Made by a program: the position numbers and the translations under genes. Below are positions 1-64,000 of a stretch of 64,000 nucleotides of DNA, piece by piece (the first letter of the stretch is position 1; every line of letters begins with the position of its first letter). This DNA comes from an uncultured Chloroflexia bacterium. GTDB lineage: Bacteria > Chloroflexota > Limnocylindria > Limnocylindrales > CSP1-4. A model generated the notes under the pieces. The model searched no databases. It was not told the origin of the DNA and saw only the letters and a program-made list of their open reading frames with translations. The stretch covers positions 106,382 to 170,381 of the forward strand of contig CAVURK010000006.1 of the NCBI GenBank assembly GCA_963743855.1. Direction: 5' to 3'.

Positions 1-166
1 TGATGCGGACCTCGCCGGCCGCGATCGAGCTGATGGTGGAGGTGGACGTGTCGGCGACCTGGATGAGCGATCGGTAGTCGCGCATCCCGCGTCCGAGGAG
101 GACAAGGCCCGCGACGACCCCGAATCCGGCGAACACGGTCAGCCAGACGGACGACTGTGGATCCAC
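1..166 (-). CDS. Partial CDS (N-terminal part in window, continues past window start): predicted membrane protein, probable GTG start at 164-166
   Basis: Reverse-strand translation VDPQSSVWLTVFAGFGVVAGLVLLGRGMRDYRSLIQVADTSTSTISSIAAGEVRI has one hydrophobic helix and no stop to the window edge; it lies directly downstream of, and co-oriented with, the PspC gene. It is not in the ORF track because it runs off the edge. Confidence 0.3.
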   Translation of the reverse strand, partial: MDPQSSVWLTVFAGFGVVAGLVLLGRGMRDYRSLIQVADTSTSTISSIAAGEVRI

Positions 167-191
167 GGCCCCATCGTACGGGACCGGCCCC

Positions 192-626
192 TCAGCTCGA
201 GCGCCGCGGAGCGACGGCCATGACGATGAGCAGGATCCCCAGACCGATGGCGGCGATCGGCCACCACAGCCCGAGATCGAGCGCGGGGATGAGCTCTCGG
301 ATGAGGAACAGGACGCCGACGACCACCAGCACGGCGCCGATGACGAAGCCCGCCCGCGCACGGTCGGCCGGGTCGCGTCGCTGCCGGCCGGGGGCCGTGG
401 AGACGCCAGCCGACGACGGCGGCGTCCCGCCACCCGGCGCAGCACCCGCTGGGTGTACGCGAGGTCCAAGGTCGGTCGGCCGTTCGGGGACCACGATGGC
501 CATCACGATGTACACGAGGAGACCGACCCCGCCGGTCAGGATGGCGACCAGCGCCCAGACGATCCGGATGATCGACGGATCGATGTCGAACAGCTCGGCG
601 ACGCCGCCGGCGACACCGGCCAGCAT
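192..626 (-). CDS. PspC-domain protein (phage-shock-protein C family, membrane)
   Basis: ERLYRSRDDRMLAGVAGGVAELFDIDPSIIRIVWALVAILTGGVGLLVYIVMAIVVPE is a PspC N-terminal domain plus TM helix. I trimmed the start to the internal ATG at 624-626, because the track start at 845 would overlap the upstream gene by 190 nt. Confidence 0.7.
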   Translation of the reverse strand: MLAGVAGGVAELFDIDPSIIRIVWALVAILTGGVGLLVYIVMAIVVPERPTDLGPRVHPAGAAPGGGTPPSSAGVSTAPGRQRRDPADRARAGFVIGAVLVVVGVLFLIRELIPALDLGLWWPIAAIGLGILLIVMAVAPRRSS

Positions 627-654
627 CCGGTCGTCGCGCGATCGATAGAGTCGT

Positions 655-1635
655 TCAGTCACAGCCGTCCTCCGGGTCGAGCGTGAACGAGCCCGCGTTG
701 GCCGTCGTCTGGAGCTCGATCTGGACCGCCGCCGACTCGAAGCCGGGGGTCGTCCAGGTCGACCCGTCCTTGACCACCCCGTGTCCGTCGTACGCATAGC
801 TGCCGACGATGCCCTCGCCAGTCTCCAGCTTGAGTGCGGCGCCATCCGGCGCGCACAGCTTCACGGCGCCGGCGTTGGCTTCGATCGTGCCGTGCAGCGA
901 GAGGTTCGGGAGAGTCAGTCCGAGCGACCCGGCATTGAGGCTCGCGTCGAGCCCATCGATGGCCTTGATCGATCCGAGATCGACTGTCGCCGACGCTGCG
1001 TTGAGTTCGAGATCCACGCCGCCAAGGGTGGCTCCGCCGAGGTCGATCGTCGTCCCGCCGGCGTTGACGTGAAGGCCGAGGTCCAGGGTCGAGAGATTCG
1101 GCACCGCGACGTCCCACCGATCGCGTTGGCCGAACGCCCAGAACGGGCCGTGGTGGTCATTCCGCGAACGGACGCTGAGTGACGCGTCGGTCGTCGTGAT
1201 CTCGGGTCCGATCCCGTCGGCGTCGGTGCCTCCGACGTGCCAGCCGTCGTCGGAGGCCACCGAGACCGTCATGTTTCCGCAGTCGAGCTGGAGGTCGATC
1301 GTGCCGCCGGTCGCGAACGTGCCGTCGCGTGCCGGGAACGCGACCGACCCATCGTTCCCTCCGCAGATGCCGGTCGATAGCGGCAGGAACCCGACGCTGA
1401 GCAGCCCGCCGACCATCGCCCCGAGCGTTGCGGCGACGATCAGGCCACCGACGAAATCGAGTCGCGTGCGGCCGAGGATCAGGCCGACACCGATCCCGAC
1501 CAGGATGAGCGGCCACAGCTGCCAGAGCCGGCCGACCTGGTCGGCATCGAGGGCGCCCGACCTGACCAGCAGCGGGATGGCGCCTGCCAGGATGAGGAAG
1601 ACGCCCCACCCCAGGAAGCCGCGACGGATATGCAT
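655..1635 (-). CDS. DUF4097 / LiaG-like putative adhesin (membrane-anchored beta-helical repeat protein)
   Basis: N-terminal hydrophobic helices are followed by repetitive G/D/L/T/A-rich beta-strand repeats (LDLGLHVNAGGTTIDLGGATLGGVDLELNAASATVDLGSIKAIDGLDASLNAGSLGLTLPNLSL...); the gene is operonic with the PspC gene. Confidence 0.6.
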   Translation of the reverse strand: MHIRRGFLGWGVFLILAGAIPLLVRSGALDADQVGRLWQLWPLILVGIGVGLILGRTRLDFVGGLIVAATLGAMVGGLLSVGFLPLSTGICGGNDGSVAFPARDGTFATGGTIDLQLDCGNMTVSVASDDGWHVGGTDADGIGPEITTTDASLSVRSRNDHHGPFWAFGQRDRWDVAVPNLSTLDLGLHVNAGGTTIDLGGATLGGVDLELNAASATVDLGSIKAIDGLDASLNAGSLGLTLPNLSLHGTIEANAGAVKLCAPDGAALKLETGEGIVGSYAYDGHGVVKDGSTWTTPGFESAAVQIELQTTANAGSFTLDPEDGCD

Positions 1636-1768
1636 GCCGCAACGGTAGCCGACGGCTCGTCCCGGGCGAGGCCGAATGTCGTGGTCTTGCGGTGACGGCC
1701 GTGTGCTAGCCTCGTCACGAGGTCAGGGGAGGCGTTCCCTGGACGAGCGATCGGCAGACGGAGGCTCG

Positions 1769-2299
1769 ATGCGACTCAGCGAGTGGCGGGCGAAGGCACC
1801 CAGCAAGGATGCGGTCGCGCCCAAGGTCGTCGCCGTGATCGAACAGGCCCTGCTGGCGCTCGGCGGCGATCAGGACCCGGAGTGCTGGGTCGCCTGGGGG
1901 GATGATCCCGGAATCCGGTATCTGGTCCTCGTGCCGACGCCCGCCGGGATGCTCCAGATCAGCGTCCGCGTGATGGTCCCGGGCGAAGGCCCGCGTGCGG
2001 CCGGGAAGATCATTCGCTGGGCACGCCTCCAGCTGGGCGAGCTGGCGGTCGAGATCCAGGGTGGACACCGGCTCGTGACCTTCCAGGTCGAGAGCCTCGT
2101 CCTGACCGGCGCCGATGCGGCGGCCGACGGGATCTCTGCCTTCGCCCAGGCCCTGTTCGCCGCGGCCGATGGACGGGTGCCACCACCCGCCAAGCGCTCG
2201 ACCGGTCGACCAGCGACGGCGACGAAGAGCGTCGCGACCGCGAGCGCCGCCACCAGGGGCACTGCCGGTGTCCCGCGGTCACCCGCCAGCAAGCGATAG
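1769..2299 (+). CDS. Hypothetical protein (C-terminal disordered Ala/Thr/Ser tail)
   Basis: ORF 1676..2299 trimmed to the ATG at 1769, which has GGAGG 6 nt upstream; coding-like composition, no recognised domain. Confidence 0.45.
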   Translation: MRLSEWRAKAPSKDAVAPKVVAVIEQALLALGGDQDPECWVAWGDDPGIRYLVLVPTPAGMLQISVRVMVPGEGPRAAGKIIRWARLQLGELAVEIQGGHRLVTFQVESLVLTGADAAADGISAFAQALFAAADGRVPPPAKRSTGRPATATKSVATASAATRGTAGVPRSPASKR

Positions 2300-2357
2300 C
2301 GCGACCGGAGGTGCCGGAGCGTCCGAGCGACCTCGTCCCGTCAGGCAGCGTCGCGGC

Positions 2358-3161
2358 ATGACGATCCGCCGGGACCGCACGGCATTGCCGGGACCGGCCA
2401 TCAGCCCGATCCGTCGCACGATCCGCTACTGGCTCGCGCGCCTGATGGCCGCAGCCGTGACCCGTGCCTACATGCGCGTCCGGCTCGATGGACGCGAACG
2501 GCTGCCGCCAGGCCCCGCCATCTACTGCTTCAACCACATGAGCTGGGCGGATCCGTTCGTCCTGATGGCGACGCTCCCGTTCCGGCCGCGCCTCTGGTTC
2601 TTCGGCCCCAAGGAGGAGGACATGGGCGTCGGAGGCCGTAACCGGCTGATGATCTGGACCGGCACGACGATCCCGTACAAGCCGGCCAAGAACGACCTCC
2701 TCGATGCGACGCGCCGAGTCGGCGCGGTCGTGGCCACCGGAGCGGTCGTCGCGATCGCCGGGGAGGGGCGGATCCACGCCGGCGAGTCCGACCTCCTGCC
2801 GCTCAGCGAGGGTGCCGCGTACTTCGCCCTGAGATCGGGGATCCCGCTTGTGCCGATCGCGATCGCCGGGACGAGCTGGTTGCGCTTCGGTGGCCGGATC
2901 AGGGTCCGGGTGGGGGAGCCCATCCCGATCGCCAGCCGGCCGACTCGCGAGGCAGTGGACGAGGTCACGGCCGCTCTGTCGCTGGCCCTCCACGACCTCG
3001 TCGCCGACGCCCCGGACCTCGCGCCGCCCGGACGGTTCGGACGCTGGCTCACGGAGCTGTTCAACGACTGGCCGGAGGGATCGCGCGAGGCGGCCGGCGC
3101 GGCCTCGCTGGCCCCCGGTCTGGCATACTTCGACCCGCCCGAAGCGACGGAGGCGACGTAG
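2358..3161 (+). CDS. plsC: 1-acyl-sn-glycerol-3-phosphate acyltransferase (PlsC family)
   Basis: NHMSWADP (HX4D acyltransferase motif) followed by the PEGTR-like region ...AIAGEGRIH...; start set at ATG 2358 within ORF 2115..3161. Confidence 0.8.
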   Translation: MTIRRDRTALPGPAISPIRRTIRYWLARLMAAAVTRAYMRVRLDGRERLPPGPAIYCFNHMSWADPFVLMATLPFRPRLWFFGPKEEDMGVGGRNRLMIWTGTTIPYKPAKNDLLDATRRVGAVVATGAVVAIAGEGRIHAGESDLLPLSEGAAYFALRSGIPLVPIAIAGTSWLRFGGRIRVRVGEPIPIASRPTREAVDEVTAALSLALHDLVADAPDLAPPGRFGRWLTELFNDWPEGSREAAGAASLAPGLAYFDPPEATEAT

Positions 3162-3169
3162 GAGGACCC

Positions 3170-3535
3170 GTGGCAGCGACCGGACTCTCGGCCAACCCGA
3201 AGCAATACCGCGTCCGCCTCCGCGACCAGAGCGATGACCAGATCGACGCCTGGGCCGCCGAGCTGATGCGCGATGTCGCGATCCGGCGCGGGGTGGTCAA
3301 GGTGGTCGACGACTTTCGCCGCGCAGGTCGGCTCGACGAACGGAGTTTCGAACGCGTGTTCGCATCCGGCGGTGGCCCGCCGGCCGTCATCGGGCGGGAT
3401 GCCAAGGGCCGCCTGATGGTCCCGGCGATCACGCTGTTCGCGCTCGTGCCCGGGATCCGCGCCCAGGTCCCCGACGGGCGCGACCGGCTGATCGAGTACC
3501 TCCTCGAGAACTTCGACGAGATCGTCTACGTCTGA
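3170..3535 (+). CDS. Hypothetical protein (121 aa), co-transcribed with plsC
   Basis: Starts 9 nt after the plsC stop; clean coding composition; no domain I can name. Confidence 0.5.
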   Translation: MAATGLSANPKQYRVRLRDQSDDQIDAWAAELMRDVAIRRGVVKVVDDFRRAGRLDERSFERVFASGGGPPAVIGRDAKGRLMVPAITLFALVPGIRAQVPDGRDRLIEYLLENFDEIVYV

Positions 3536-3623
3536 CGGACCGGCCGGCGGTCGCGGCCGGCTGGCACGCATCGGCGGTCTCGTCCGGCTCACCCACCCGT
3601 TTCCGTGTCTGCTCGATGGCCTC

Positions 3624-4400
3624 GTGGTGGGTGTCGTCGCGGCGATCGCCGGTGCCGACGGCTCGACCGCCCTGCGGCTCGGGGTCGCGATGACCCTCCT
3701 CCAGGCCTCGATCGGGTCGCTCAACGACCTGGTCGACGCGCCCCACGACGCAGGCCGAAAGCAGGGCAAGCCGATCCCAGCCGGTCTCGTCTCGCCCGAT
3801 GGAGCTCGTGTCGCGATCGTGACCGCCGGGGTCGCCGGGGTGGCCCTGTCCGTGCCATCCGGGCCGGCGACCATTGCCCTCGCCGTCGTCGTCCTCGCGA
3901 TCGGCTACGCCTACGACCTCCGGTTCAAGGGAACGGCCTGGTCGTGGATCCCCTTCGCGCTCGGGATCCCGCTCCTCCCGGTCTTCGGCTGGCTCGGGGC
4001 GACGGGCGGGCTGGTCGCCCCGTTCGCCATCCTGCTGCCGACCGCCATGCTCGCCGGCGCCGCGCTGGCCATCGCCAATGCGCTGGCGGACATCGACCGT
4101 GATGCGGCTGCGGGCGTCGACTCGGTGGCACGCCGGCTCGGCCCAGGGCGAGCCTGGGCGACGCATGCGGTCCTGCTCGCGGTCGTGGTCGGCGTCGCGT
4201 TGAGCTCCCTGGCGTTGGCCGGTCGGGGCGGACCGGGGCCTGTCGCCGCGGCGATCGTCGCGTGCCTGATCGTCGCCGCGGGCATCGCCCTCGGCCGACG
4301 TGGCGACGCCGCACGCCGGGAACGGGCGTGGGAGCTCGAGGCCGTCGGTGTCGGCCTGCTCGCGGCGGCCTGGCTGGCAGGCGTTCCGCTGGGCGGCTAA
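3624..4400 (+). CDS. UbiA-family prenyltransferase (possibly DPPR-synthase-like); N-terminus may be truncated by an indel
   Basis: NDLVDAPHDAGRKQGKPIPAGLVS is a UbiA-superfamily Asp-rich motif, followed by several TM helices. GTG start at 3624; the motif lies only about 33 aa from the start, which is unusually close. Confidence 0.6.
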   Translation: MVGVVAAIAGADGSTALRLGVAMTLLQASIGSLNDLVDAPHDAGRKQGKPIPAGLVSPDGARVAIVTAGVAGVALSVPSGPATIALAVVVLAIGYAYDLRFKGTAWSWIPFALGIPLLPVFGWLGATGGLVAPFAILLPTAMLAGAALAIANALADIDRDAAAGVDSVARRLGPGRAWATHAVLLAVVVGVALSSLALAGRGGPGPVAAAIVACLIVAAGIALGRRGDAARRERAWELEAVGVGLLAAAWLAGVPLGG

Positions 4401-4434
4401 ACGTCCGCTCTGGTCGCCCGGCTAGATACCGCCG

Positions 4435-5446
4435 TCAGTTGCCGCCGTCCTCGCTCCGCACCATCGCGATCGCGTTCTCCAGGCGGAGCTTGGCGATGGT
4501 CAGGTACTTCGCCAGGTTGGCCCGATCCGTCGCGCCGATCGAACGGACCTCGGCGCTCCCCAGGACCCCGACCAGCTCGTCGACCGCGTCGACGAGGCTC
4601 TGCTTCGCGTTGACCAGGGAGTCATCCGAGATCTCGCGGGGTGGGGGACTGGCCTCGGACGTCCACACGCCCTGTTCCTCGGACGTGTCGGCGTCGGCCG
4701 CCTCCGCGATGCGCGGCTCCGGGACGTCCACGCCGTCATCGACCTCGGTCCCGGGCCGCGCCCGTCGCCCCTCGATCTTGTCGCGCAGCTTGATCAGAGT
4801 CAGCTCACCGCGCGCGACCTGCTCGGCCAGACGCCGGCGCTTCTTGGGGTCCTCGACCTTCATCAGCTCGTAGGCATGGGACAGACTGTCCTTGCGCAAA
4901 GACACCAGCTCGCGGATCTCGGGCGGAGCATCCGCCAGGCGGAGCCGGTTCTCCAGGTATCCCTTGTCCTTGCCCAGCTTGTCCGCCAGCTTGCGGATGC
5001 TGTAGCCGTGTTCGTGGACCATCCGGTCATACATCGCGGCTTCATCGAGCGGCGTCAGGTCCTCGCGCTGGAGGTTCTCGATGATCGCGATCTCCAGCGC
5101 GGTGTCGTCGTCGATGTCCTCGATCAATGCCGGGATGGTCTCGAGACCCGCCAGACGCGAGGCTCGCCATCGACGCTCGCCGGCAACGATCTGGTAGGTG
5201 TTCGGGCCGAGCGGTCGGACAAGGATCGGCTGGAGGACCCCATGCTCGCGGATCGACGCCGCGAGCTCGTCGAGCGCCGCGGGCTCGAAGACCAACCTCG
5301 GCTGTTCCGGGTTCGGCTCGATGTGATCGACGTGGACGATGCGGACTCCGACCGAACGCGTCGGACTGTCCGGCGTCAGCAGGCTGACGATCGCCGGCGA
5401 GAGCTCGGTGTCCTCGGACAGCCGCCGTGCGGCTGCGGCGCGGAAG

Positions 5447-5460
<14 letters not shown>
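4435..5460 (-). CDS. parB: Chromosome partitioning protein ParB/Spo0J
   Basis: [43 protein letters not shown]...[11 protein letters not shown] (ParB box) plus an HTH region; start overlaps the parA stop. Confidence 0.9.
4888..4903. promoter_or_regulatory. 16-bp palindrome GTCCTTGCGCAAAGAC inside the parB coding sequence (third copy of the GTCTTTGCGCAAAGAC motif)
   Basis: Read directly from the sequence; it is the reverse-complement orientation of the copy at 6446-6461 and shares flanks (CTG...ACCAG). Confidence 0.5.
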
Positions 5461-6217
<757 letters not shown>

Positions 6218-6316
6218 CGGGGCATCACCTCAGGATTCTGACGGGCGGCCGGGGCCGTCGGGGGAGGGGAACGAGTCCGTTCATCGTACGCGCCCCGGTC
6301 GGTTTCTGGCACCCGG

Positions 6317-6359
6317 TTATCCACACGCTTCGCGAGTTGTTCACCGAATCTGTGGATAT
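6317..6359. promoter_or_regulatory. Inverted pair of DnaA boxes (TTATCCACA at 6317-6325; TGTGGATAT at 6351-6359) in the parA / pccB divergent intergenic region
   Basis: First box matches the DnaA-box consensus exactly; second matches its reverse complement at 8 of 9 positions; about 25 bp apart. Confidence 0.55.
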
Positions 6360-6445
6360 CCGAGCCGTCCGGACGCTGTCCGTGGAGCGACGGATACGTG
6401 GCGTTCTCCGTCCGAACGAGCCGAGATGCGTGGCTATGATGCAGC

Positions 6446-6461
6446 TGTCTTTGCGCAAGGA
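6446..6461. promoter_or_regulatory. Putative operator: 16-bp palindrome GTCTTTGCGCAAGGAC between a TATGAT -10-like hexamer (6434-6439) and the AGGAGG RBS of pccB
   Basis: Palindrome read from the sequence; it sits 21 nt upstream of the pccB GTG start and is repeated at 8045-8060 and 4888-4903. Confidence 0.6.
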
Positions 6462-6481
6462 CACCAGGAGGTCCGATCCCC

Positions 6482-8036
6482 GTGTCGACGAATGAAGAGC
6501 GGCTCGACCGGCTCGAGCAGATGCGCGTCGAGTCGCAGCTTGGCGGCGGAGCTGTCCGGATCGAACGACAGCACGCGTCAGGAAAGCTGACGGCGCGCGA
6601 ACGGCTCGAGCTGTTGCTCGACCCGGGTTCGTTCGTCGAGCTCGATGCGTTCGTCACCCATCGCGCGACCGGGTTCGGGTTGTCGGAAGAGCACATCCTC
6701 GGTGATGGAGTCGTGACCGGACACGGGACGATCGACGGCCGTCTCGTCTTCGTCTTCAGCCAGGACTTCACAGTCTTCGGCGGATCGTTGTCCGAGGCAT
6801 ATGCCGAGAAGATCTGCAAGGTCATGGATCTGGCGATGCGCGTCGGCGCGCCGATCATCGGTCTCAACGATTCGGGCGGGGCGCGGATCCAGGAAGGCGT
6901 CGCATCGTTGGGCGGCTATGCCGACATCTTCCTGCGCAATGTCCTGGCCTCGGGCGTGGTGCCGCAGATCTCCGTGGTGATGGGGCCGTGCGCCGGTGGC
7001 GCCGTGTACTCGCCGGCGATGACGGACTTCACGATCATGGTCGAGCACACGAGCTACATGTTCGTCACGGGACCGAACGTCGTGAGGACGGTCACCCACG
7101 AAGAAGTGGATTCGGAATTCCTTGGCGGCGCCATGACGCATACGACGAAGAGTGGGGTCGCACATCTCGCCGCAACCGATGAAGCCGAAGCGCTCGACTC
7201 GGCCCGTCGGATCCTTGCCTACCTGCCGCAGAACAATCTGGGTGACGCGCCCTCGGTCGTCTCCACCGATCCCGCCGACCGGATGGATGTCGCGCCTCGA
7301 CCGGATCGTCCCCGACGATCCGCGGACGCCGTATGACATGCACGACGTGATCCGCGGGATCGTCGACGACGGCGCGTTCCTCGAGATCCAACCGGGTTGG
7401 GCGCCGAACATCCTCATCGGCTACGCGCGACTCGGCGGTCGGAGTGTCGGCATCGTCGCCCAGCAGCCGGCGGTCCTCGCCGGGGCGCTGGACATCGATG
7501 CGTCGATCAAGGCGGCGCGGTTCGTCCGCACCTGTGATTGCTTCAATGTCCCGCTGGTCACCTTCGTCGATGTCCCGGGGTTCCTGCCGGGCGTCGCGCA
7601 GGAACACGGCGGGATCATCAAGCACGGCGCAAAGCTGCTGTACGCCTATTGCGAAGCGACGGTCCCGAAGCTGACGGTGATCACCCGCAAGGCGTACGGC
7701 GGCGCCTACGACGTCATGAGCAGCAAGCACATCCGGGCCGACATGAACTTCGCGTGGCCGACCGCCGAGATCGCCGTCATGGGCGCGGCCGGCGCGGTCA
7801 GCATCATCTTCAAGGATGCGATCAGCGCCGCCGACGACCCTGCCGCCGAGGAGGCCCGTCTGGTCGCGGCCTACGAGACCGAGTTCGCGAACCCCTACAT
7901 CGCCGCGTCGCGCGGATATGTCGATGAGGTCATCAAGCCGTCCGAGACACGGCCGCGGCTCATCCGTTCGCTCGAGGTTCTTGCCGACAAGCAGCAGACG
8001 AACCCGAGGAAGAAGCATGGCAACATCCCGCTCTGA
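6482..8036 (+). CDS. pccB: Propionyl-CoA / acyl-CoA carboxylase carboxyltransferase beta subunit (PccB/AccD5-like); one frameshift near 7290
   Basis: N-half ORF 6482..7336 (biotin-dependent carboxyltransferase N-domain, ...[14 protein letters not shown]...) and C-half ORF 7152..8036 (...[19 protein letters not shown]...GGAYDVM...KHGNIPL) are contiguous halves of one ~520-aa protein in different frames. Confidence 0.85.
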
Positions 8037-8069: not shown

Positions 8070-10304
8070 GTGACGGGTCCGCCGTTCAACCGGGTGCTGG
8101 TGGCCAACCGCGGGGAGATCGCGGTCCGCATCATCCGGGCGTGCCACGAGCTCGGGATGGAGGCCGTGGCGGTCTATAGCGATGCCGACGTCGGCGGCCC
8201 AGCACGTCCGGCTCGCCGATACCGCGGTCCGGATCGGACCGCCGGCACCGACCGAGAGCTACCTGCGGATCGACCGGATCATCCAGGCTGCCCTGGACAC
8301 GGGCGCCGAGGCGATCCATCCGGGCTACGGCTTCCTGGCGGAGCGGGCCGCCTTCGCACGTGCGGTGGAGGATGCGGGACTCGTCTTCGTCGGGCCGTCG
8401 TCGGCGACGATCGACGCGCTCGGCGACAAGCTCCATGCCCGACGGACCGCCCGGGACGTCGGGGTCGCGGCCGTGCCGGGGACCCTCGAGCCGGCACCCG
8501 TCGACCGACCAGACCAGGTCGCGGCGATCGTGGCCGAGGCCGAGGCGATCGGCTTTCCCTTGCTGGTCAAGGCCGCGGCCGGTGGTGGCGGCCGCGGGAT
8601 GCGCCGGGTCGTGGCGGCCAGCGGATCTGCCGGCCGCCCTGGCCGATGGATCGCGCGAGGCGGCATCGGCTTTCGGTGACGGGTCGGTCTATCTCGAGCG
8701 CGAGATCGTCCCGGCGCGCCACATCGAGGTCCAGCTGCTCGGCGATGCCACGGGGCGGGTCGTGGCCATCGGCGAGCGCGACTGCTCGCTCCAGCGGCGC
8801 CACCAGAAGCTGGTCGAGGAGGCACCGGCGCCGGGGCTCTCCGTGGACGAGCGCCGTGAGCTGCACGCGATGGCGGTCAAGGTCGCGACGGCGGCCGGCC
8901 TCCAGAATGCAGCGACCGCGGAGTTCCTCCGAGGCGCCGACGGCTCCTTCTGGTTCCTCGAGGTCAACACCCGACTCCAGGTCGAGCATGGCGTCACCGA
9001 GCTGGTGTCGGGGCTCGACATCGTCCGCGAGCAGTTCTGGTTGGCTGCCGGGCGGCCGCTGTCGGACGACGCGCTCGCCGCCGCCGAGCGGGCGACCGAG
9101 CCGACGGGCCACGCGATCGAGGTCCGGATCGCGGCCGAAGACCCGTCCCGAGACTTCGCCCCGACGCCGGGTCGGGTCGCGGCGGTGGGTGATGCCGGCC
9201 GGTCCTGGCGTCCGTGTCGATACCGGGATCGAGGCCGGCGACCGGGTCCCGGCCGAGTACGACAATCTGATCGCCAAGGTCCTGGTCCACGCCGGGGACC
9301 GCGGAGCGGCGATCGCGCGTCTTCGCCGGGCGCTCGACGAGACCGAGATCGGGGGCATCCAGACGACGCTTCCCTTCCATCGCTTCGTGGCGCGCAGCCC
9401 GTCCTTCGCCGCTGCCGAGCTGTCGACGGGCTGGGTGGACGAGCAGTGGGATGGACCGACCGCGTTCGGTCGGGCTGCCCGTGTCGCGCTGCTGGCGGCC
9501 GGGCTCGACGCCATCACGAGCGGCCACGCGATCGCGACCGGGGGACCGCCCACGTCGCCAGCGGCCGGTCCCGGTGGGGCAGGGGACGACGGCTGGCGCC
9601 GGGCGGCCCGGGAAGCCGCCACCGACCGGTGGCCGCGGTGAGCACCCAGCCGATCCGTGAGACCGATGCCGGGGGCGACGACGCCAGCGACCCGGGCGCC
9701 GGTCCGACGGCCGAACCCGCCGCGGATCGGATCGTCGACCCTCGGGCCATCCGGGTCGCGCTGGGACCCGCGGGAGGGCACACGGGCGTCCCGCCTGTCG
9801 TCATCGGACCGGGGCCTGCCGCCGACGACGGGGTCGTCATCGTCGATGGCGAACCCCGTCAGCTCCGGCTCGAGCGGTTCGATCCCGTCCACACCATCCT
9901 TGTCGAGGTCCTCGACGACCCGACCCGGACGCCGGTCCTGCTCCTGGCCGATGATGGCCCGGCCGGCCAGGGCGGCCGTCGCCAGGTCGTGGTCGACGGC
10001 TGGCTGGTCGAGGTGGAGGTCGGATCCGAGCGCCACGCACTCCCTTCGCGAACGCGCTCGTCGAGGCGGGTCGGCGACCTCGCACGACGGACCGACCGAG
10101 GTCCGTGCCATCATCCCGGGCCGGGTGGTGTCGGTGTCGGTCGTCGCAGGCGACGCCGTGCTGGCCGGCGAGCAGCTCCTGGTCGTGGAGGCGATGAAGA
10201 TGCAGAACGAGCTCCGGGCGCCACGGGACGGGGTCATCTCGCGGGTCGCCGTCGGGGCCGGCCAGACCATCGACGTCGGTGACGTCATGGTGGTCCTCAC
10301 GTGA
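8070..10304 (+). CDS. accA: Acyl-CoA carboxylase alpha subunit (biotin carboxylase + C-terminal biotin carboxyl carrier domain, EAMKMQNE); at least 4 frameshifts
   Basis: [32 protein letters not shown] (frame 0), [47 protein letters not shown]...[17 protein letters not shown] (frame 1), [21 protein letters not shown]...[16 protein letters not shown] (frame 2), [32 protein letters not shown]... (frame 0), then the biotinyl domain ...[12 protein letters not shown]... ending at 10304. Confidence 0.8.
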
Positions 10305-12534: not shown

Positions 12535-12624
12535 GGGCGACAGGGTACGCTGCGCCGATGCCGCCCATGCCACCCAGCGAGGGGCTTCCCGACCCGATCC
12601 GCTCGCATCGGGCGCGTCCACCAC

Positions 12625-14847: not shown

Positions 14848-14854
14848 CGCCGGG

Positions 14855-16918: not shown

Positions 16919-17074
16919 GGGCGGATCAGGCTCCAGCGTGCGTCGGTGCGGGGAGAGGCGATGGTACCGCGTCGAACGGCCGCCGGACGGATTCGGAACG
17001 AACGGATGCGCGACCGACTCCTCGGAGGCCGCTCGCCGGCGTCGAGTCGCCCGCCGCGCCGCTAGAATGGCCGC

Positions 17075-49404: not shown

Positions 49405-49408
49405 TCCC

Positions 49409-49789: not shown

Positions 49790-49796
49790 GCCGTCG

Positions 49797-52678: not shown

Positions 52679-52720
52679 GCCCTCGTGGAAGAGCCGACCG
52701 AACGTTTGTTAGGTCGCGAG

Positions 52721-52749
52721 TTGACAGTCCACGAAACGCTGTGGATAGT
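52721..52749 (+). promoter_or_regulatory. Strong sigma-70-type promoter TTGACA-17 nt-GATAGT upstream of the ABC transporter SBP gene, with a ~170-nt leader
   Basis: Consensus -35 TTGACA (52721-52726) and -10 GATAGT (52744-52749) with a 17-nt spacer, read from the sequence. Confidence 0.6.
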
Positions 52750-52921
52750 ACCGGCAGCGCACCGACCCGATCCGTGCTGGCGCCACGGCTCGCCCATCGG
52801 CCGAACGAGCGGGAGGCTCGATCCGGACCAAAGCGAGCACATGAGTAGTGACGTTGAGATGTGCGGCGGAACGCGGTAGCGAGAGAGTCATCGGGCAGCA
52901 AACCCGTTCGGAGGAGAACCC

Positions 52922-54672: not shown

Positions 54673-54701
54673 ACGAGGGCCGCACAGGCTTTCGTCTGAA
54701 G

Positions 54702-54728
54702 CTGGGGGCCGGCCCGTCCGGCCCCCAG
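54702..54728 (+). other. GC-rich intercistronic stem-loop after the SBP gene (CTGGGGGCCGG-CCCGT-CCGGCCCCCAG)
   Basis: 11-bp perfect inverted repeat with a 5-nt loop and no U-tract. Confidence 0.5.
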
Positions 54729-54816
54729 GCAGCCCGGGCCCAGGACGCCTCGCGATCCGGGGCCCGGGATCATCCGTACCTTCGTATCGGCGTCAGCAAC
54801 AGGCAAGGGGATCGAG

Positions 54817-55736
54817 ATGATCGGGTATATCGCACGACGGTTCCTCTGGATCATCCCCGTCCTTTTCGTCGTCTCGCTGATCACCTTCACGCTCATGCAC
54901 GCCGTCCCCGGCGGACCGTGGGCGCGTGACAAGGCGCTCGCGCCCAGCCTGGTCGCGACCCTGAACCAGAAATACGGGCTCGACCAGCCCGTCTACCAGC
55001 AGTACGCGACCTGGGTGACCAACCTTCTCCAGGGCAACCTCGGTCCCTCCTACAAGTTCACGGACCGCAGTGTCAACGACATCGTCGGCGGCGGCATCTG
55101 GACGACCGTCCAGCTCGGCCTGATGGCCTTCGCGTTGTCCGTCCTGGTCGGTATCCCGCTCGGGGTGATCGCCGCGTTAGGTCACAATCGGTGGCCCGAC
55201 TACCTGTCGACCGGGATCTCGGTCATCGGCATCTCCATGCCCAGCTTCGTCCTGGCGCTGCTGTTGATCGTGTTCTTCGGGGTGACCCTCAAGGCCTTAC
55301 CAACCCAAGGTTGGAAGGGTCCTGACACGTGGATCCTGCCGACGATCGCGCTGGCCGCTTTCCCGATCGCCGTGATCGCGCGCTACACACGCGCGTCGAT
55401 GCTCGAGGTGACCCGCAAGGACTACATCCGGACGGCCCAGAGCAAGGGCGTCGCCGAGCGCGCGGTCGTGACCCGACACATGATCCGCAACGCCCTGATC
55501 CCGGTCGTGACGATCCTCGGGCCGACGCTCGCGTTCCTCGTCACCGGATCGTTCATCATCGAGTACATCTTCGGCATCCCCGGGCATCGGACGCTATTAC
55601 GTCACCTCGATCGGCCAGCACGACTACGGTGTGTTGATGGCGATGACGATCCTGTATGCCTTCGTGGTGGCCTTCCTCAATCTCGCGGTCGATGTCGCCT
55701 ATGCGTTCATCGACCCGCGGATCCGGTACAGCTAGG
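54817..55736 (+). CDS. ABC transporter permease (DppB/OppB-like); one frameshift near 55580
   Basis: MIGYIARRFLWIIPVLFVVSLITFTLMHAVPGGP...; EAA-like loop ...ARYTRASMLEVTRKDYIRTAQSKGVAER...; C-terminus ...AFIDPRIRYS. Confidence 0.8.
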
Positions 55737-55747
55737 AGTCGCGAACG

Positions 55748-56689
55748 ATGGCCACCGAAACCCTTCGTGGAGGCGTCGCCCGGCCGGCAAAGGCGCCGGC
55801 AGGCCTGTGGAGCGACGCGTTCGCGCGGCTTCGCAAGAACAAGCTGTCGATGATCGGGCTGATCATGGTGATCTTCCTGCTGTTCATCGCGATCGTCGGT
55901 CCGTTCATCACGCCCTACAACTACCAGGACCAGGACCTCGTGGCGGTCGTCGCCAACAACGGCCAACCGCTGCCGCCCATGACCGGCGGCCACATCCTGG
56001 GCACGGACCAGATCGGGCGCGACCTGCTCAGCCGCCTGATGGACGGAGCCCGGATCAGCATGACCGTGGCGCTCGTCGTCCAGATGGTCGTGCTCCTGAT
56101 CGGCGTGCCGATCGGCGCGATCGCCGGCTGGATGGGCGGCCGGACGGACAACCTGCTGATGCGCTTCACGGACGTCATGTACGCCTTCCCGGACCTCCTG
56201 TTCATCATCCTGTTGACCGTCGCGTTCAAGCAGACGCCGTTCGGCCAAGCCATGGACGGGCTGTTGCTCGTGTTCGTGGCGATCGGTCTCACCAGCTGGG
56301 TGACCGTCGGTCGACTCGTCCGCGGCCAGATGCTCGCGCTCAAGGAGACGGAGTTCGTCGAGGCCGCGCGCGCGATCGGCGTCTCTGACCGCAAGATCGT
56401 GACCAAGCACCTGCTGCCGAATGGCATGGGTCCGGTCATCGTCGCCGTCACGCTCGGGATCCCGGCGGCGATCCTGGCCGAGGCGACGCTCGCCTACATC
56501 GGGATCGGCGTCCAGGCTCCGCGCGCATCGTGGGGCAGCCTCGTGGCGGATGGCCAGCAGGTCCTGCGCTCCAGCCCGTGGCTGGTTGTCTTCCCGGCCC
56601 TGTGCATCGCCACCGCGCTCATCAGCTTCACGTTCCTGGGCGACGGTCTCCGTGACGCCCTGGACCCGAAGCTCAAGGGGAAGCAATAG
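55748..56689 (+). CDS. ABC transporter permease (DppC/OppC-like), intact
   Basis: ...LKETEFVEAARAIGVSDRKIVTKHLLPNGMGPVIV..., 313 aa. Confidence 0.85.
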   Translation: MATETLRGGVARPAKAPAGLWSDAFARLRKNKLSMIGLIMVIFLLFIAIVGPFITPYNYQDQDLVAVVANNGQPLPPMTGGHILGTDQIGRDLLSRLMDGARISMTVALVVQMVVLLIGVPIGAIAGWMGGRTDNLLMRFTDVMYAFPDLLFIILLTVAFKQTPFGQAMDGLLLVFVAIGLTSWVTVGRLVRGQMLALKETEFVEAARAIGVSDRKIVTKHLLPNGMGPVIVAVTLGIPAAILAEATLAYIGIGVQAPRASWGSLVADGQQVLRSSPWLVVFPALCIATALISFTFLGDGLRDALDPKLKGKQ

Positions 56690-57796
56690 GTGGTCAGCGC
56701 CGAGGAGGATATGTCCGCCGCCGACGCCCCGACCATCGTCGAACTTTCCGCTGAGGACGTCCTCCGCGCACGGACGGAGGCAGTCGCCAAGGCAGGAGTC
56801 GGCCGCAAGGCCGACCACCTGCTCGAGGTTCGCGGCCTGTCGACGCATTTCTTCACGCCGGACGGCGTCGTCCAGGCGGTCGATGACGTCAGCTTCGACG
56901 TCGGCTACGGCGAGACGCTCGGCCTGGTCGGCGAATCCGGCTGCGGCAAGAGCGTGACCGCGCTGTCGATCGCCCGGCTCGTCCCGGATCCACCGGGCAA
57001 GATCGTCGGCCGGGTCGATCCTGTTCGACGGCATCGACGTCCTGAAGCTGAACCCCGAGGACATGCGCAAGCTGCGCGGCAAGGAGATCGGGTTCATCTT
57101 CCAGGACCCGCTGACGAGCCTCAATCCGACGCTCACGATCGGCTACCAGATCGGTGAGGCGATCCGCCAGCACATGGGCCTGTCGGACAAGGCGACCGTC
57201 GACCGGACCATCGAGCTGCTGTCCAAGGTCGGCATCCCGCGGGCCAAGGATCGGCTCAAGGACTATCCGTTCCAGTTCTCGGGCGGGATGCGCCAGCGCG
57301 TGATGATCGCCATCGCCCTGTCGTGCGACCCGAAGCTGATCCTGGCCGACGAGCCGACGACCGCGCTCGACGTGACGATCCAGGCCCAGATCCTCGAGCT
57401 GATCCAGAAGCTGTCGAGCGAGTTCGGGACGGCCGTCCTGATGATCACCCATGACCTCGGCATCGCCGCCGGCATGTGCGATCGGGTCAACGTCATGTAC
57501 GCCGGGCGCATCGTGGAGACCGGGACCGTCGACGAACTCTTCGAGGAGCCGCGGATGCCGTATTCCTGGGGTCTGCTCGATTCGCTGCCGCGGATCGACG
57601 ACGTCCGCGGCGACCGGCTGCGGACGATCGAGGGTCTGCCGCCAGTGCTGATCCGACCCCCGGACGCGTGCCGCTTCAACCCACGCTGCGTCTACGCCCG
57701 CGACATCTGCCGTGCCGACGAGCCCGAGCTGACCGCCCGCGGCACCACCGGCCACCTGGCCCGCTGCTGGGCGACCGAGCCCGAAGGCTGGATCGG

Positions 57797-57800
<4 letters not shown>
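56690..57800 (+). CDS. ABC transporter ATP-binding protein (DppD/OppD-like); one frameshift near 57010
   Basis: ...[16 protein letters not shown]... (Walker A); C-part ...[19 protein letters not shown]...[13 protein letters not shown]... (signature + Walker B)...CRFNPRC... Confidence 0.85.
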
Positions 57801-59106
<1,306 letters not shown>

Positions 59107-59110
<4 letters not shown>

Positions 59111-60198
59111 CGTTCGCGCGACTCTCGGAGTTCCGCTGCTAGGTCCTGCCCGACCGCCAGGCGCTGCCGGCTCGTCGACCCTGCCGCCGCCGGCTGACGG
59201 AAGTGGCAGGCGCACAGGTGGTCGTCGCCGATGTCGATGAGCGGCGGGATGGCCTCGGCACAGATCGCCGGGTTGCCCAGCTGCTCGCGCAACGGGCAGC
59301 GCGGATGGAAGCGGCAGCCGGTCGGCGGGTTGACCGGGCTCGGCACGTCGCCCTTGAGGATGACCCGCGTCCGGCGGATGGTCGGGTCGGGGACCGGGAT
59401 CGCCGACATGAGGGCGGTCGTGTACGGGTGTTCCGGCGTCCTTGAACAGGGCGCGCCGATCGGCCAGCTCGGCCACCCGGCCGAGGTACATGACCGCCAC
59501 CCGATCGCTGATGTGCTCGACGACGCCCATGTTGTGGGCCACGAACAGGTAGGTCAGCCCGAGCTCCTGCTGGAGCTGCTTGAGCAGGTTGAGCACCTGG
59601 GCCTGGATCGACACGTCGAGGGCCGAGACCGGCTCGTCGCAGACGACCAGGTCGGGCTCCAGGACGAGCGCCCGGGCGATGCCGATGCGCTGGCGCTGGC
59701 CGCCGGAGAACTCGTGCGGGTAGCGACTGGCGTGCCACGGCGCCAGCCCGACGAGGTCCATCATCCGCCGGACCTTCTCCGCACGCTCCGCGGACGTCCC
59801 GATCCCGTGGACCCGGAGGCCCTCGCCGATGCTGTCGGCGATCGGCGTCCGCGGGTCGAGGCTCGAGTAGGGGTCCTGGAAGATCACCTGCATCCGGCGC
59901 CGGTAGGGCTTGAGGGCCGAGCCCTTGAGGGCCGTGAGCTCCGTCCCGTCGAACCGGATCGAGCCCGCCGTCGGTTCGATCAGGCGCAGCAGCAGCCGTC
60001 CGACGGTCGTCTTGCCACAGCCCGACTCGCCGACGAGGCCAAGGGTCTCGCCCTTGCGGATGTCGAGATCGACCCCGTCGACCGCCTGGACCATCCCGAT
60101 CGTCCGCTGGAGGACGCCGCCCCGGATCGGGAAGTGCTTGACCAGGCCGCGGATCTGGACGAGTGGCTCGGCCTCTGCGCCGACGGCGATCCGGCCAT
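59107..60198 (-). CDS. ABC transporter ATP-binding protein (OppF/DppF-like) of the second, convergent transporter; frameshifted
   Basis: ...[16 protein letters not shown]...[19 protein letters not shown]..., ...[19 protein letters not shown]...[15 protein letters not shown]..., C-terminus ...[40 protein letters not shown]...; its stop (rev-comp of CTA at 59107-59109) overlaps the stop of the plus-strand ATPase in the tetramer CTAG. Confidence 0.75.
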
Positions 60199-60263
60199 AG
60201 GGACCGGCGCCACGCCGCCCGCCCGGCTCGGGTCGGACGGCTCCGGATCGCGTGGCATGGCGG

Positions 60264-61388
60264 TCACGTCGCGACCTCCGGCCGGGCGATCGGCCGGCCG
60301 TCCTGATCGTGGTAGAGCCAGCACCGGACGTCGTGGCCCGCGCGACCGACAGCAGCTCCGGGATGGGCCTCGGTCGCCAGGGTCACGTCCTGCTCGATCC
60401 GGGTCAGGCAGCGCGGGGCGAATCGGCAGCCGACCGGCAGGTTGACGAGGCTCGGGACGTTGCCGGGGATGACCGCCAGCGTGTCCTTGACGTCGCCGAC
60501 GAGCGGGATCGAGGCGATCAGCCCGCGGGTGTAGGGGTGCAGCGGCTTGGCGAACAGCGTCCCGACATCGGTCTGCTCGACGATCTCGCCGGCGTACATG
60601 ACCGCCACCCGGTCGCACATCTCGGCGACCACGCCGAGGTCGTGGGTGATCAGGATGATCGATGTCCCGAACTCGTCGCGGAGCGTCGCGCATCAGGTCG
60701 AGGATCTGGGCCTGGATGGTGACGTCGAGGGCTGTCGTCGGCTCGTCGGCGATGAGCAGGTCCGGCTCGCAGGCGAGCGCCATCGCGATCATCACCCGCT
60801 GGGCCATGCCGCCCGACAGCTCGTGCGGGAACGACTTCGAGTCGCCGTTCCGGGTCCGGGATGCCGACCATCCGGAGGAGCTCGAGGGCCCGGCCGTGCG
60901 CGGCGTCGCCGCTCATCTTGCGATGCAGCTCGAGAACCTCGCTGATCTGCCAGTCGACGTCCCGCACCGGGTTCAGCGACGAGGTCGGCTGCTGGAAGAT
61001 CATCGAGATCCGGTCGCCCCGGATCTTGCGCATCTCGTCGCTCGAGAGGCTCATCAGGTCCGTGCCGTCGAACAGGATCTCGCCGGCGTCGATCGTGCCC
61101 GGCGACGGCGACCAGGCGCAGGATCGACAGGCTGGTGACGCTCTTGCCGCAGCCGGATTCGCCGACGAGACCCATGATCTCGCCGCGTCCGACCGTGAAG
61201 TCGATGCCGTCGACGGCCTTGACGACGCCTTCGCGGGTCTTGAACGAGGTCCGCAGGCCCTTGACCTCGAGGAGCGGCCTGCCGTCTCGCGGCCGCGGCG
61301 GCTTGCGTGCCGACGCCGGCACGAGCTCCTCGATCGTCGTCTCGTCGAGCGGCGCGCCGAGACGCTCGGGCACGTGGGCCCCGGTCAT
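60264..61388 (-). CDS. ABC transporter ATP-binding protein (OppD/DppD-like); frameshifted
   Basis: ...[54 protein letters not shown]...; middle ...[16 protein letters not shown]...; C-part ...[20 protein letters not shown]...GCRFAPRC... Confidence 0.75.
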
Positions 61389-62341
61389 CGATTGAGCCGT
61401 GGGTCGAGCGCGTCGCGCAGCCCGTCGCCGAGCAGGTTGAAGGCGAAGACGGTCAGGGTGAGGGCGATGCCCGGGAACAGGATCAGGTGCGGGGCCGTGA
61501 ACAGCTTGTCGCTGTTCTGGCCGATCATCGAGCCCCATTCGGCCATCGGTGGCTGGGCGCCCAGGCCGAGGAACGACAGGGCCGCCACGTCCAGGACGGC
61601 TCCGGCGATGCCGAGCGTCCCGGCCACGATCAACGGCGTGATGGAGTTCGGCAGGATCCGTCGGAACAGGATCCCCCGGGCGCCCTCGCCCAGTGCCCGC
61701 GACGCGGTGACGAAGTCGCCTTCCTTCGTCGACAGCACGGCGGCGCGCATGATCCGGGCGTAGATGGGGATGGCGACGATGACGATCGCCAGCTGGGCCG
61801 TCAGCAGGCCCTGACCGATGGCGGTGACGATCCCGATGGCCAGGAGCAGGGCGGGAAAGACCAGCAGGATGTCCATGATCCGCATCAGCAGGTTATCGGT
61901 CCAGCCGGCCGCGTAGCCGGCCACCAGGCCGATCAGCGCCCCGATCCCGATCGCGAATCCGACCGTGACGAAGCCGACGAAGAGCGACACCCGGGCGCCG
62001 TGCACGACCCGGCTGAAGACGTCGCGGACGTTCGGGTCGGTGCCCATCAGGAACTGGGGCTGGTCGGCCGGGCAACCGAGGACGTGGATGCACGGCGGGG
62101 ACGACTTCTTGGCCCCGTCGACGACCCCGATGAGGACCTGGTCGGGCGGGTACTGGGCGAGCTGGTCGGCGAACAGGGCGCACAGGCCCAGGAAGACCAG
62201 GATCGTCAGGCCGACGAGCGCGTTGCGCTGGTGGAGGATGTTCCGGCCGGTGCCGCGCCAGACGCCGATCTGGCGGACCTCCTGGTCGACCGCCTTGTCC
62301 AGCCCGGCGTGGAGGTTGCCCTGGAAGCTGGGTACGGTCAT
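61385..62341 (-). CDS. ABC transporter permease (OppC/DppC-like), intact
   Basis: 318 aa; EAA loop ...[36 protein letters not shown]... Confidence 0.85.
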
Positions 62342-62351
62342 CGTCCGATCC

Positions 62352-63428
62352 TCATGCGAGCCGGATCCGCGGATCGAGCCAGGCGTACGAGATGTCGACG
62401 ATCAGGTTGGCGATCAGGTAGCCGACCGCGATGACCAGGACGAACCCCTGGACGACGGCGTAGTCGCGGCTCTGGATCCCCTCGGTGACCGCCCGGCCGA
62501 CGCCGGCCAGGCCGAAGACGGTCTCGGTCAGGACCGCGCCGGCGAGCAGGCTGCCGAGCTGGATGCCGATGATGGTGATGACCGGCAACATCGAGTTCGG
62601 GAGGCCGTGGCTCCGCACGACCGCCCGGTCGCTCAGGCCCTTCGCCTGGGCCGTGCGGATGTAGTCGAGGCCCATCACGTCGAGCAGGCTCGAGCGGGTG
62701 ATCCGGGCGATGATCGCGAGCGGGACGGTGGCCAGGACGAGGGCCGGCAGGATCATGTGCCGGAACGCGTCGAAGAAGATGTCCCAGCGCAGGGTCAGGA
62801 TCCCGTTGAGGGTGTAGATGTTCGAGACGAAGTCGACGATCCCGCGCGGCGGTCCGCTCAGGCCCTGGAGGCCCCAGGCGGTCGCCAGCGGCGTCGGATC
62901 GAGTCCCGGCGTGAGCCGGCCGCCCGACGGCAGGGCGAACGGGCTGCCCTTCAGCAGGATCGCGAAGATGAAGATCATGATCGGGCCGAGCACGAAGATC
63001 GGGATCGACACCCCGAGGTTGGCGCCGGCCATGGTCCCGACGTCGATGCTCGAGTTGCGCCGGCGCGCCGAGATGATCCCCAGCAGGACGCCGACCGGGA
63101 TCGCGATCAGGAGCGCGTAGAAGGCCAGCTCGATGGTCGTCGGCAGGCGCGAGATGAGCATGTCGGTGACCGGCTGCGATGCCTTGATCGAGGTCCCGAG
63201 GTCGCCCCGGAGCAGGGCGGCAAGGAAGTCGACGTACTGCACGGGGATCGGCCGGTCGAAGCCGTGGGCGTGGTCGTAGGCGGCGCACGCTGCCGGTGAG
63301 GTGTGCTCGCCGAGGATGGCGGCACATTGCGAGCCGGGCAGCAGGTGCCCCATCACGAAGACGAGCGTCACGACCCCGATCAGGACCGGGATCGTGAGCA
63401 GGATGCGGCGGAAGATGTACCGAGTCAT
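62352..63428 (-). CDS. ABC transporter permease (OppB/DppB-like), intact
   Basis: MTRYIFRRILLTIPVLIGVVTLVFVMGHLLPG...; EAA loop ...DYIRTAQAKGLSDRAVVRSHGLPNSMLPV... Confidence 0.85.
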   Translation of the reverse strand: MTRYIFRRILLTIPVLIGVVTLVFVMGHLLPGSQCAAILGEHTSPAACAAYDHAHGFDRPIPVQYVDFLAALLRGDLGTSIKASQPVTDMLISRLPTTIELAFYALLIAIPVGVLLGIISARRRNSSIDVGTMAGANLGVSIPIFVLGPIMIFIFAILLKGSPFALPSGGRLTPGLDPTPLATAWGLQGLSGPPRGIVDFVSNIYTLNGILTLRWDIFFDAFRHMILPALVLATVPLAIIARITRSSLLDVMGLDYIRTAQAKGLSDRAVVRSHGLPNSMLPVITIIGIQLGSLLAGAVLTETVFGLAGVGRAVTEGIQSRDYAVVQGFVLVIAVGYLIANLIVDISYAWLDPRIRLA

Positions 63429-63455
63429 CCGGTCCTTCGAGGTTCCGGGTGGTCA

Positions 63456-63486
63456 AAGGGGGCGTCGCGGGTCGCGACGCCCCCTT
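63456..63486 (-). other. Strong 14-bp GC-rich intercistronic stem-loop between the SBP and permease genes of the second transporter
   Basis: AAGGGGGCGTCGCG-GGT-CGCGACGCCCCCTT, perfect inverted repeat read from the sequence. Confidence 0.55.
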
Positions 63487-63509
63487 GGTTCACGATGCGG
63501 GGGTCAGGA

Positions 63510-64000
63510 TCACGACTTGGGCAGGAACCCGCCCCACAGGGCTCCCCAGTAGTCGAACGTGCCGCCGTTGCCGACGTGCAGCGGGTTGTTGGGGTCCCAC
63601 TGGACCGCGAGCGACGTGACGACGTCGTTGGCGTCCAGGGCTGACCCGTCCGCGAACTTCACGTTGTCCTGCAGCTTGCAGGTCCAGATCGTGCCGTCCG
63701 TGTTCGCCGATCGCAGCTGGTCGCCAGGCTCGGGACCGTCGTCGGTCCCGCCGATCTTGTACGCGTAGAGCGTGTCGTAGACCTGCTCGCAGTTGCGCAG
63801 CGAGTCGCCGTCACTCTCGTCGCCGCAGTACAGGCCGGAGGTCTCGGCGTTCTGGTCGAAGACGATCTGCGTGGCGGTCGCCGGGCTCGACGACCGAGAA
63901 GATGTCGACGCCCAGCGGCGAGGCCTGCGCACCGGTGACGTCCGCCTTGTACGCAGCCGCGGAGGCGGCGTGGTTGAGCGGGATCATCGGGACGTGCTGC
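63510..64000 (-). CDS. ABC transporter substrate-binding protein family 5 (C-terminal part; N-terminus beyond window end); one frameshift near 63890
   Basis: ...NVKFADGSALDANDVVTSLAVQWDPNNPLHVGNGGTFDYWGALWGGFLPKS* (ORF 63510..63932); upstream codons continue in another frame to the window edge. Confidence 0.7.

Follow-up and report, generated by a model that had tools for sequence, protein, structure and literature searches.

Frameshifts in a 64-kb Limnocylindria sequence as very probable consensus errors of long-read metagenome assembly

The 64-kb stretch of DNA analysed here (64,000 nt, referred to below as the window) derives from an uncultured soil population of Candidatus Limnocylindria (Chloroflexota) and carries frameshifts in most of the division and cell wall (dcw) cluster, in genes of the tricarboxylic acid (TCA) cycle and in two Opp-type ABC transporters. 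The frameshifts are not a biological feature. They are very probably (a probability of about 0.93) consensus errors of a long-read, and very probably Nanopore-only, metagenome assembly, and not mutations of the organism. About 100 spurious extra bases, clustered in patches, would each put an otherwise intact gene, itself under normal purifying selection, out of frame. A preliminary description of this DNA had also called the frameshifts consensus errors and not pseudogenes, and this is supported by the restoration of reading frames, by a normal ratio of nonsynonymous to synonymous substitution rates (dN/dS), and by a sister contig that lacks 17 of the 18 frameshifts found in the corresponding part of the window.

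Frameshift census and restoration of reading frames

Segmentation of both strands by a codon-usage Viterbi method revealed dozens of frame switches within genes, nearly all of them +1 steps, on both strands. Events were detected with a frameshift-aware protein-to-DNA aligner, using intact orthologues from 11 related loci as queries, and the indels were placed by nucleotide multiple alignments to relatives (partly in 1.5-kb chunks). The merged census comprises 103 supported events in 30 (at most 31) of the 61 features, with 92 one-base insertions, four two-base insertions and six one-base deletions; a further two-base insertion lies in an intergenic spacer, and the partial gene for a substrate-binding protein (SBP) at the right end (63.4–64 kb) adds at least four more events. 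The preliminary count, at least 35 frameshifts in about 30 genes, was true but understated. A strict subset, supported at the nucleotide level, holds 75 one-base insertions, four two-base insertions and four one-base deletions. One-base insertions greatly outnumber one-base deletions (92 versus 6; binomial p = 4e-19).

In Illumina-assembled relatives, which served as the control, the same alignment gave only 0–1 such events per 21 kb, so the events of the window are not due to chance or alignment noise. Three related metagenome-assembled genomes (MAGs) of Nanopore origin from the Microflora Danica project (labelled MFD; L013, L003 and L006) showed 3–4 such insertions per 21 kb, a rate tenfold below that of the window. 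Along the window the events are patchy (dispersion index 6.4 for 2-kb bins, p = 4e-26): the 26–28 kb bin holds 20 strict events, and 1–6 kb and 46–52 kb hold none. By the same alignments, no frameshifts were detected in nt 1–7290 (PspC-like, LiaF-like, plsC, ubiA, parB and parA genes), nor in 36440–38700, 38710–44200 or 44220–52870 (gcvT/H/PA/PB).

All of the genes named as broken in the preliminary description are indeed frameshifted, mostly with more events than claimed (Table 1). The ftsI gene, given more than six, is the most densely affected; the two indels of mraZ, placed within 20 nt of each other, are insertions 13 nt apart; and both SBP genes are interrupted as described. At least four events had been assigned to accA, and four are present, but three of these lie in the biotin carboxylase gene and one in a separate gene for a biotin-carrier domain protein. 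The three ATPase genes reported as frameshifted were found to be so, but the damage extends to all four ABC ATPases. Genes absent from the earlier list are those for a LysM protein (6 events; the gene is partly of low complexity, and some of its insertion positions are approximate), a DinB-family protein, a glyoxalase-family protein and OppB. Between 31600 and 31680 in murD, the insertions at 31620, 31633 and 31670 produce a short out-of-frame patch (GGGVPRASSTGSSPSRSIDGV) within a seemingly continuous open reading frame (ORF), so that inspection at the level of ORFs undercounts the errors.

Table 1. Frameshifted and other features of the window, and ORFs created by frameshifts
Feature	Position (nt)	Strand	Events or remarks
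pccB (carboxyltransferase)	6560–8033	+	1 one-base insertion, ~7295
Biotin carboxylase	8082–9635	+	3 one-base insertions: 8190–8193, 8620, 9179
Biotin-carrier domain protein (separate gene in relatives)	9698–10298	+	1 insertion, ~10040
Methylmalonyl-CoA mutase large subunit (mcm)	10319–12017	+	1 insertion, 10556 (G turning GG into GGG)
Glyoxalase/epimerase-family gene	12558–13029	+	1 probable insertion, 12603 (two relatives only)
DinB-family gene	14379–14857	-	At least 1 insertion, ~14638 (up to 4 by single reference)
sucD	14858–15740	-	2 insertions: 15056, 15153
sucC	15741–16925	-	7 insertions: 15819, 15856, 16310, 16632, 16788, 16867, 16919; 1 deletion: 16717
Isocitrate dehydrogenase (idh)	17075–18098	+	4 insertions: 17201, 17571, 18007, 18035
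Membrane protein between idh and sdhA	18161–18901	+	
sdhA	18915–20739	+	1 insertion, near 19839
RNase P RNA, bacterial class A	22169–22542	+	178.6 bits
LysM-domain protein	23002–23897	+	~6 insertions (four references agree: 5–6)
dcw cluster	24164–41006		
mraZ	24164–24597	+	2 insertions: 24325, 24338
rsmH-ftsL spacer (small ORF in some relatives)	25608–25842	+	2 insertions: 25654, 25710
ftsL	25843–26219	+	3 insertions: 25877, 26090, 26151; 1 deletion: 26102
ftsI-class penicillin-binding protein	26223–28100	+	~19 events; densest gene
murF	28111–29565	+	~10 events; orthologue above TIGR01143 cut-off
mraY	29553–30547	+	5 insertions: 29781–29784, 29827, 30224–30227, 30372–30375, 30385–30388
murD	30548–32120	+	7–8 insertions, including close set 31620/31633/31670
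ftsW	32117–33428	+	1 insertion: 33056
murG	33340–34504	+	1 insertion: 34156
murB	34495–35464	+	1 insertion: 35149
ddl	35465–36584	+	2 insertions: 35610, 36433
FtsA/out-of-frame/YjbQ fusion ORF (548 aa)	37896–39542		Artefactual public product
ftsA	37908–39126	+	1 insertion: 38703
tRNA-Val(CAC)	42232–42308	+	
acnA	43487–46235	-	1 insertion: 44213–44217
Opp-type substrate-binding protein 1	52940–54669	+	2–3 insertions: 53012 (uncertain), 53060, 53510
SBP fragment (352 aa)	53614–54669		Artefactual public product
oppB permease	54826–55732	+	1 insertion: 55579–55585
oppD ATPase	56696–57794	+	1 insertion: 57008
OppD fragment (245 aa)	57063–57797		Artefactual public product
oppF ATPase	57795–59100	+	6 insertions: 57827, 58080, 58162, 58229, 58454, 59010
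ABC ATPase, second transporter	59117–60200	-	1 insertion: 59438–59440
ABC ATPase, second transporter	60201–61391	-	4 insertions: 60363, 60687, 60838, 61106; 1 deletion: 60340
Substrate-binding protein 2 (runs past window end)	63444–64000	-	At least 4 extra bases versus sister contig L137: 63710, 63712, 63740, 63872

With the private insertions left out, each gene can be aligned over its full length to intact orthologues, at 75–97% identity. For example, skipping 1 nt in pccB restores 87–89% identity to the intact 517-aa orthologues of two related loci (L131 and L133), and the restored mcm product is 93–96% identical to intact orthologues. In the comparison with orthologues that the preliminary description had suggested as a check, these edits restore full-length proteins, with no internal stop in any frameshift-aware alignment, nor in about 5,200 projected dcw codons. 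In the nucleotide alignments, lesions larger than 1–2 nt were not seen. The dN/dS between the window and its relatives is 0.18–0.21 in the densest zone and 0.15–0.24 elsewhere, compared with 0.12–0.21 among the intact relatives, and the lowest dN of the pairs involving the window is that with L013. Thus, neither in-frame stops nor a dN/dS (Ka/Ks) near 1, the signs by which genuine pseudogenes were to be recognised, are present. The window has no excess of private substitutions at columns that are otherwise invariant, and the fraction of private substitutions at codon positions 1 and 2 (0.63) is at the top of the relatives' range (0.41–0.61). An excess of substitution errors in the dense zone was considered and rejected, as private substitutions are not elevated there and no clear sign of it was seen.

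Genuine pseudogenisation or reductive evolution, by which the dcw, TCA cycle and transporter genes would be truly inactivated, is extremely unlikely. It would fit the presence of the frameshifts in the deposited record, and the occurrence of one of them (58454) in a sister lineage. However, the essential, single-copy genes ftsI, murF, mraY, murD, ftsW and sucCD would on this reading have been inactivated repeatedly, yet they contain no nonsense codons and their dN/dS is normal; about 60 indels in 8.7 kb of decaying sequence predict hundreds of neutral substitutions and around 20 stops, and none were seen. The strong excess of insertions over deletions, at non-repeat sites, also argues against it, since bacterial mutation is usually deletion-biased. 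Genomes in reductive evolution, such as those of Mycobacterium leprae and recent endosymbionts, resemble the window in having many frameshifted genes in conserved operon order, but they also show stops, deletions and raised dN/dS, and their essential genes are spared, whereas in the window essential genes are the worst affected and other decay is absent.

Rescue of real frameshifts at the level of expression, by programmed ribosomal frameshifting, transcriptional slippage or editing, has a negligible likelihood. Nothing specific favours it, other than that the gene fragments are otherwise well conserved. The sites share no common slippery or homopolymeric motif, their contexts are heterogeneous, and neither the relatives nor the sister contig conserve their positions. 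No known recoding system could accommodate up to 19 shifts in one gene.

Sister contigs and the deposited record

The right part of the window (45741–64000) is matched at 94% nucleotide identity by L137, a 481-kb contig from a separate assembly (ENA ERZ25039457 contig_55098). Seventeen of the 18 window frameshifts in this region are absent from L137, which again speaks against inherited gene decay. Conversely, L137 carries private +1 insertions in its nudix, gcvT, gcvPA, gcvPB (two) and permease genes (locus positions 2221, 3238, 5164, 5485, 6620 and 16106), and at each of these the window is intact.

Two further contigs from the same ENA series, L135 (ERZ25039554 contig_11053) and L136 (ERZ25039502 contig_102583), represent one species in two assemblies, with about 1% substitutions and proteins that are 99–100% identical. 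A 19.8-kb region of L136 (1700–21500) has 33 one-base insertions and three deletions, breaking aconitase (acnA), gcvT/H/PA, an SBP and ABC ATPases; the corresponding region of L135 is clean. Pseudogenisation is hard to reconcile with a syndrome that one assembly of a species shows and the other lacks. Lesions that are unlike between near-identical genomes, lie in essential genes and are accompanied by no further trace are products of assembly. The L135/L136 pair is a ready example of the artefact.

Eight intact proteins of the window are found letter for letter on one 1,212,957-bp contig present in NCBI and ENA. The same contig carries three products that would not exist without the frameshifts: a 548-aa FtsA-YjbQ fusion, which results from the insertion in ftsA and clusters with YjbQ proteins, a 245-aa OppD fragment and a 352-aa SBP fragment. 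The occurrence of these products in a public collection shows that the frameshifts are part of the deposited record, and for this reason a deliberate or synthetic alteration of the window was rejected.

The contig is likely to come from the Microflora Danica long-read catalogue, judging from its megabase length, its NCBI and ENA sources (like those of MFD contigs), and the presence of sister contigs in the ERZ250394xx-395xx series. That catalogue is built on Flye assemblies and one round of Medaka polishing, using no short reads, and its authors noted that coding density falls in MAGs of lower coverage (PMC12313526). Polishing with short reads is stated to be necessary for Nanopore R10.4 bins below about 40x (PMC9262707), and soil assemblies from Oxford Nanopore Technologies reads contained more frameshift errors than HiFi assemblies (PMC13087279). 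The window resembles the indel errors known from Nanopore MAGs, as detected by truncated-protein tests of the IDEEL type, in that single-base indels split intact genes, the errors are worse in complex soil samples of low coverage, and short-read relatives are free of them. It differs in context: the literature consulted blames mainly homopolymers (PMC9262707), whereas about 94% of the events in the window are insertions, and the events are depleted in homopolymers and linked to variable sites.

Signature of the inserted bases and adjoining variable sites

The errors are not homopolymer-length errors but almost exclusively +1 insertions at non-homopolymer sites. In the strict set, 56 of the 75 inserted bases (75%) adjoin no identical base, as do 85% of those in L136, compared with a background of 58% (p = 0.003); the remaining 19 touch an identical base, a smaller share than the 42% that random bases would give (p = 0.003). 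Insertions ending in a run of three or more are at background frequency in the window (9/75, 12%; background 11%) and rare in L136 (1/33, 3%), and those ending in a run of four or more number one in the window and none in L136 (background 3%). The inserted base is G or C in 79% of cases in the window, which has a G+C content of 71%, and in 82% of cases in L136. A CpG is created by 56% of insertions in the window and 64% in L136 (background 33%). The insertions of L136 are also patchy in distribution.

Classical homopolymer-length miscalls, of the kind known from 454, Ion Torrent, older Nanopore and PacBio data, are accordingly a highly unlikely source of the events as a whole. A few events do extend runs (10556, giving GGG; 33056; 34156; 36433, giving CCCC; and 55582), and the preliminary statement that some shifts sit in homopolymers holds for this minority, including the mcm insertion at 10556 and that of sdhA (19839–19852), which lies among CCC runs. 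It does not hold overall, given the run statistics above, and deletions, the usual homopolymer error, are rare.

The bases adjoining the insertions suggest a different origin. In the dcw cluster of the window, the inserted base is one that relatives carry as an alternative allele in the adjoining column in 37 of 42 cases (22.6 ± 2.7 by permutation); the corresponding figures are 20 of 32 for the rest of the window (11.7 ± 2.3) and 21 of 23 for L136 (9.9 ± 2.1). Variable columns adjoin 90% of the insertion sites, against 66% of random adjacent pairs, and third codon positions predominate among the partner sites. When the inserted base replaces its neighbour, the change is synonymous in 54% of cases, compared with 40% under permutation (p = 0.009).

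These statistics suggest a mechanism in which the read pile-up would be polymorphic at a site, because of co-assembled strains or cross-mapped close relatives, and the consensus or polishing step would choose neither allele but write both side by side (X/Y becoming XY). Such allele doublets are favoured, with modest confidence, as the source of most insertions, and would account for the excess of insertions, their avoidance of homopolymers and their patchy distribution. They would be akin to the collapsed-haplotype artefacts of polished long-read assemblies at heterozygous sites, where a mixed pile-up gives a wrong consensus and errors cluster where populations mix; the writing of both alleles in tandem as a +1 insertion is the part inferred here from sequence statistics. 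No description of a tandem-allele +1 outcome was found in a literature search. The extra bases may represent a specific failure mode, so far under-described, in which Nanopore-only metagenome consensus (of the Flye/Medaka type) writes single-nucleotide polymorphisms (SNPs) as two bases; the chance that this is correct is about even.

Alternatively, the consensus errors could be random read noise that survived low coverage and had no relation to population polymorphism. This simpler alternative, under which the events would likewise be artefacts, is possible, though less likely. It is consistent with the patchy distribution and with statements that low-coverage Nanopore bins retain indel errors (PMC12313526, PMC9262707). 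Random noise does not predict that the inserted base should match alternative alleles at the adjoining site well above permutation in three independent sets, nor the excess of synonymous swaps, the depletion of homopolymer contexts, or the identical insertions that two assemblies have at one variable Leu codon.

The last of these concerns position 58454 in oppF (+ strand), where an extra G in GACCT[G]CAAGAAACGG is the only frameshift of the window that is also found in L137; it is absent from L129, L130, L135 and L136. The inserted G and the following C form a GC doublet that corresponds to the two alleles of a Leu codon in the relatives (CTG/CTC). Coincidence of two independent random errors at one site is expected only about 0.01–0.04 times by chance, indicating that 58454 is either a true frameshift that the two lineages inherited or an artefact that recurs. 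A real inherited lesion is a smaller possibility than the failure mode described above; loss of oppF is conceivable because a second, paralogous transporter adjoins it. It thus provides one concrete candidate for the minority of real frameshifts that the preliminary description had allowed for. If 58454 is real, oppF would be a frameshifted gene in this clade.

Several observations weigh against the interpretation of the frameshifts as consensus errors of the proposed kind. The platform and pipeline are deduced from the megabase contig, its sources and the behaviour of the sister contigs, and homopolymer errors, the classical Nanopore class, are not what the window shows. The event at 58454 is common to two independent assemblies, and random error does not predict sharing. 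For the allele doublets, the argument is statistical; the correlation between SNP density and insertion density in L136 is weak (rho 0.36–0.48, p ~0.03), and a codon-slot test was not significant (28 of 39 insertions touch a third position, against 67% expected), a result that would suit random noise and is not used here as support.

A search of the database with the +1-frame translation of mcm (window 10553–12016) retrieved 26 proteins at E <= 1e-50, nearly all of them ENA gene calls from contigs of about 8–315 kb. This suggests that, in this lineage, mcm is commonly frameshifted in ENA long-read assemblies. If the allele-doublet mechanism is correct, then the window, L136, L137 and these 26 out-of-frame gene calls would be examples of a recognisable and computationally correctable class of error, present in many public long-read MAG contigs and seeding protein databases with fused and truncated products.

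Gene content of the window and implications

The closest relatives of the reconstructed MraY (85–89% aa identity) are MAGs of Candidatus Limnocylindria/Limnocylindrales (Chloroflexota), among them many 'MFD' Nanopore MAGs of the Microflora Danica project, and gene order is shared with Limnocylindria relatives across the entire window. The less obvious gene names were checked against NCBIfam using intact orthologues. On the left, parAB are followed by pccB, the biotin carboxylase and biotin-carrier protein genes and mcm, and these by sucDC, idh and sdh. The gene for RNase P RNA and the dcw cluster occupy the middle, and the right part consists of acnA, gcvT/H/PA/PB and two convergent Opp-type ABC transporters.

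The order of the dcw cluster is mraZ-rsmH-ftsL-ftsI-murF-mraY-murD-ftsW-murG-murB-ddl-ftsQ-sbp-ftsA-yjbQ-ftsZ. It includes murF and murD, and is without murE or murC. A gene for a small basic protein (sbp) precedes ftsA, and a yjbQ-family gene lies between ftsA and ftsZ, an order kept in relatives. Between idh and sdhA, in the slot expected for a succinate dehydrogenase anchor subunit, there is a gene for a membrane protein of 247–268 aa, an orthologue of which gave no Pfam or NCBIfam match; in the related locus L133, two Sdh_cyt genes are found in its place. In neither the RNase P RNA gene nor that for tRNA-Val(CAC) was a private one-base insertion detected, and the intergenic alignments are too poor for a comparison of error rates between coding and non-coding DNA.

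As regards data quality, half of the genes in this 64-kb stretch are mis-called, the syndrome recurs in sister contigs, and artefactual proteins have already entered public collections. As the signature (+1, non-homopolymer, at variable sites) is unlike the homopolymer errors that are expected, it would escape homopolymer-aware filters; correction of frameshifts guided by a reference would repair the errors. The organism itself almost certainly has intact cell-division, TCA cycle and transporter genes, and no claim of gene loss in Limnocylindria should therefore be based on this record.

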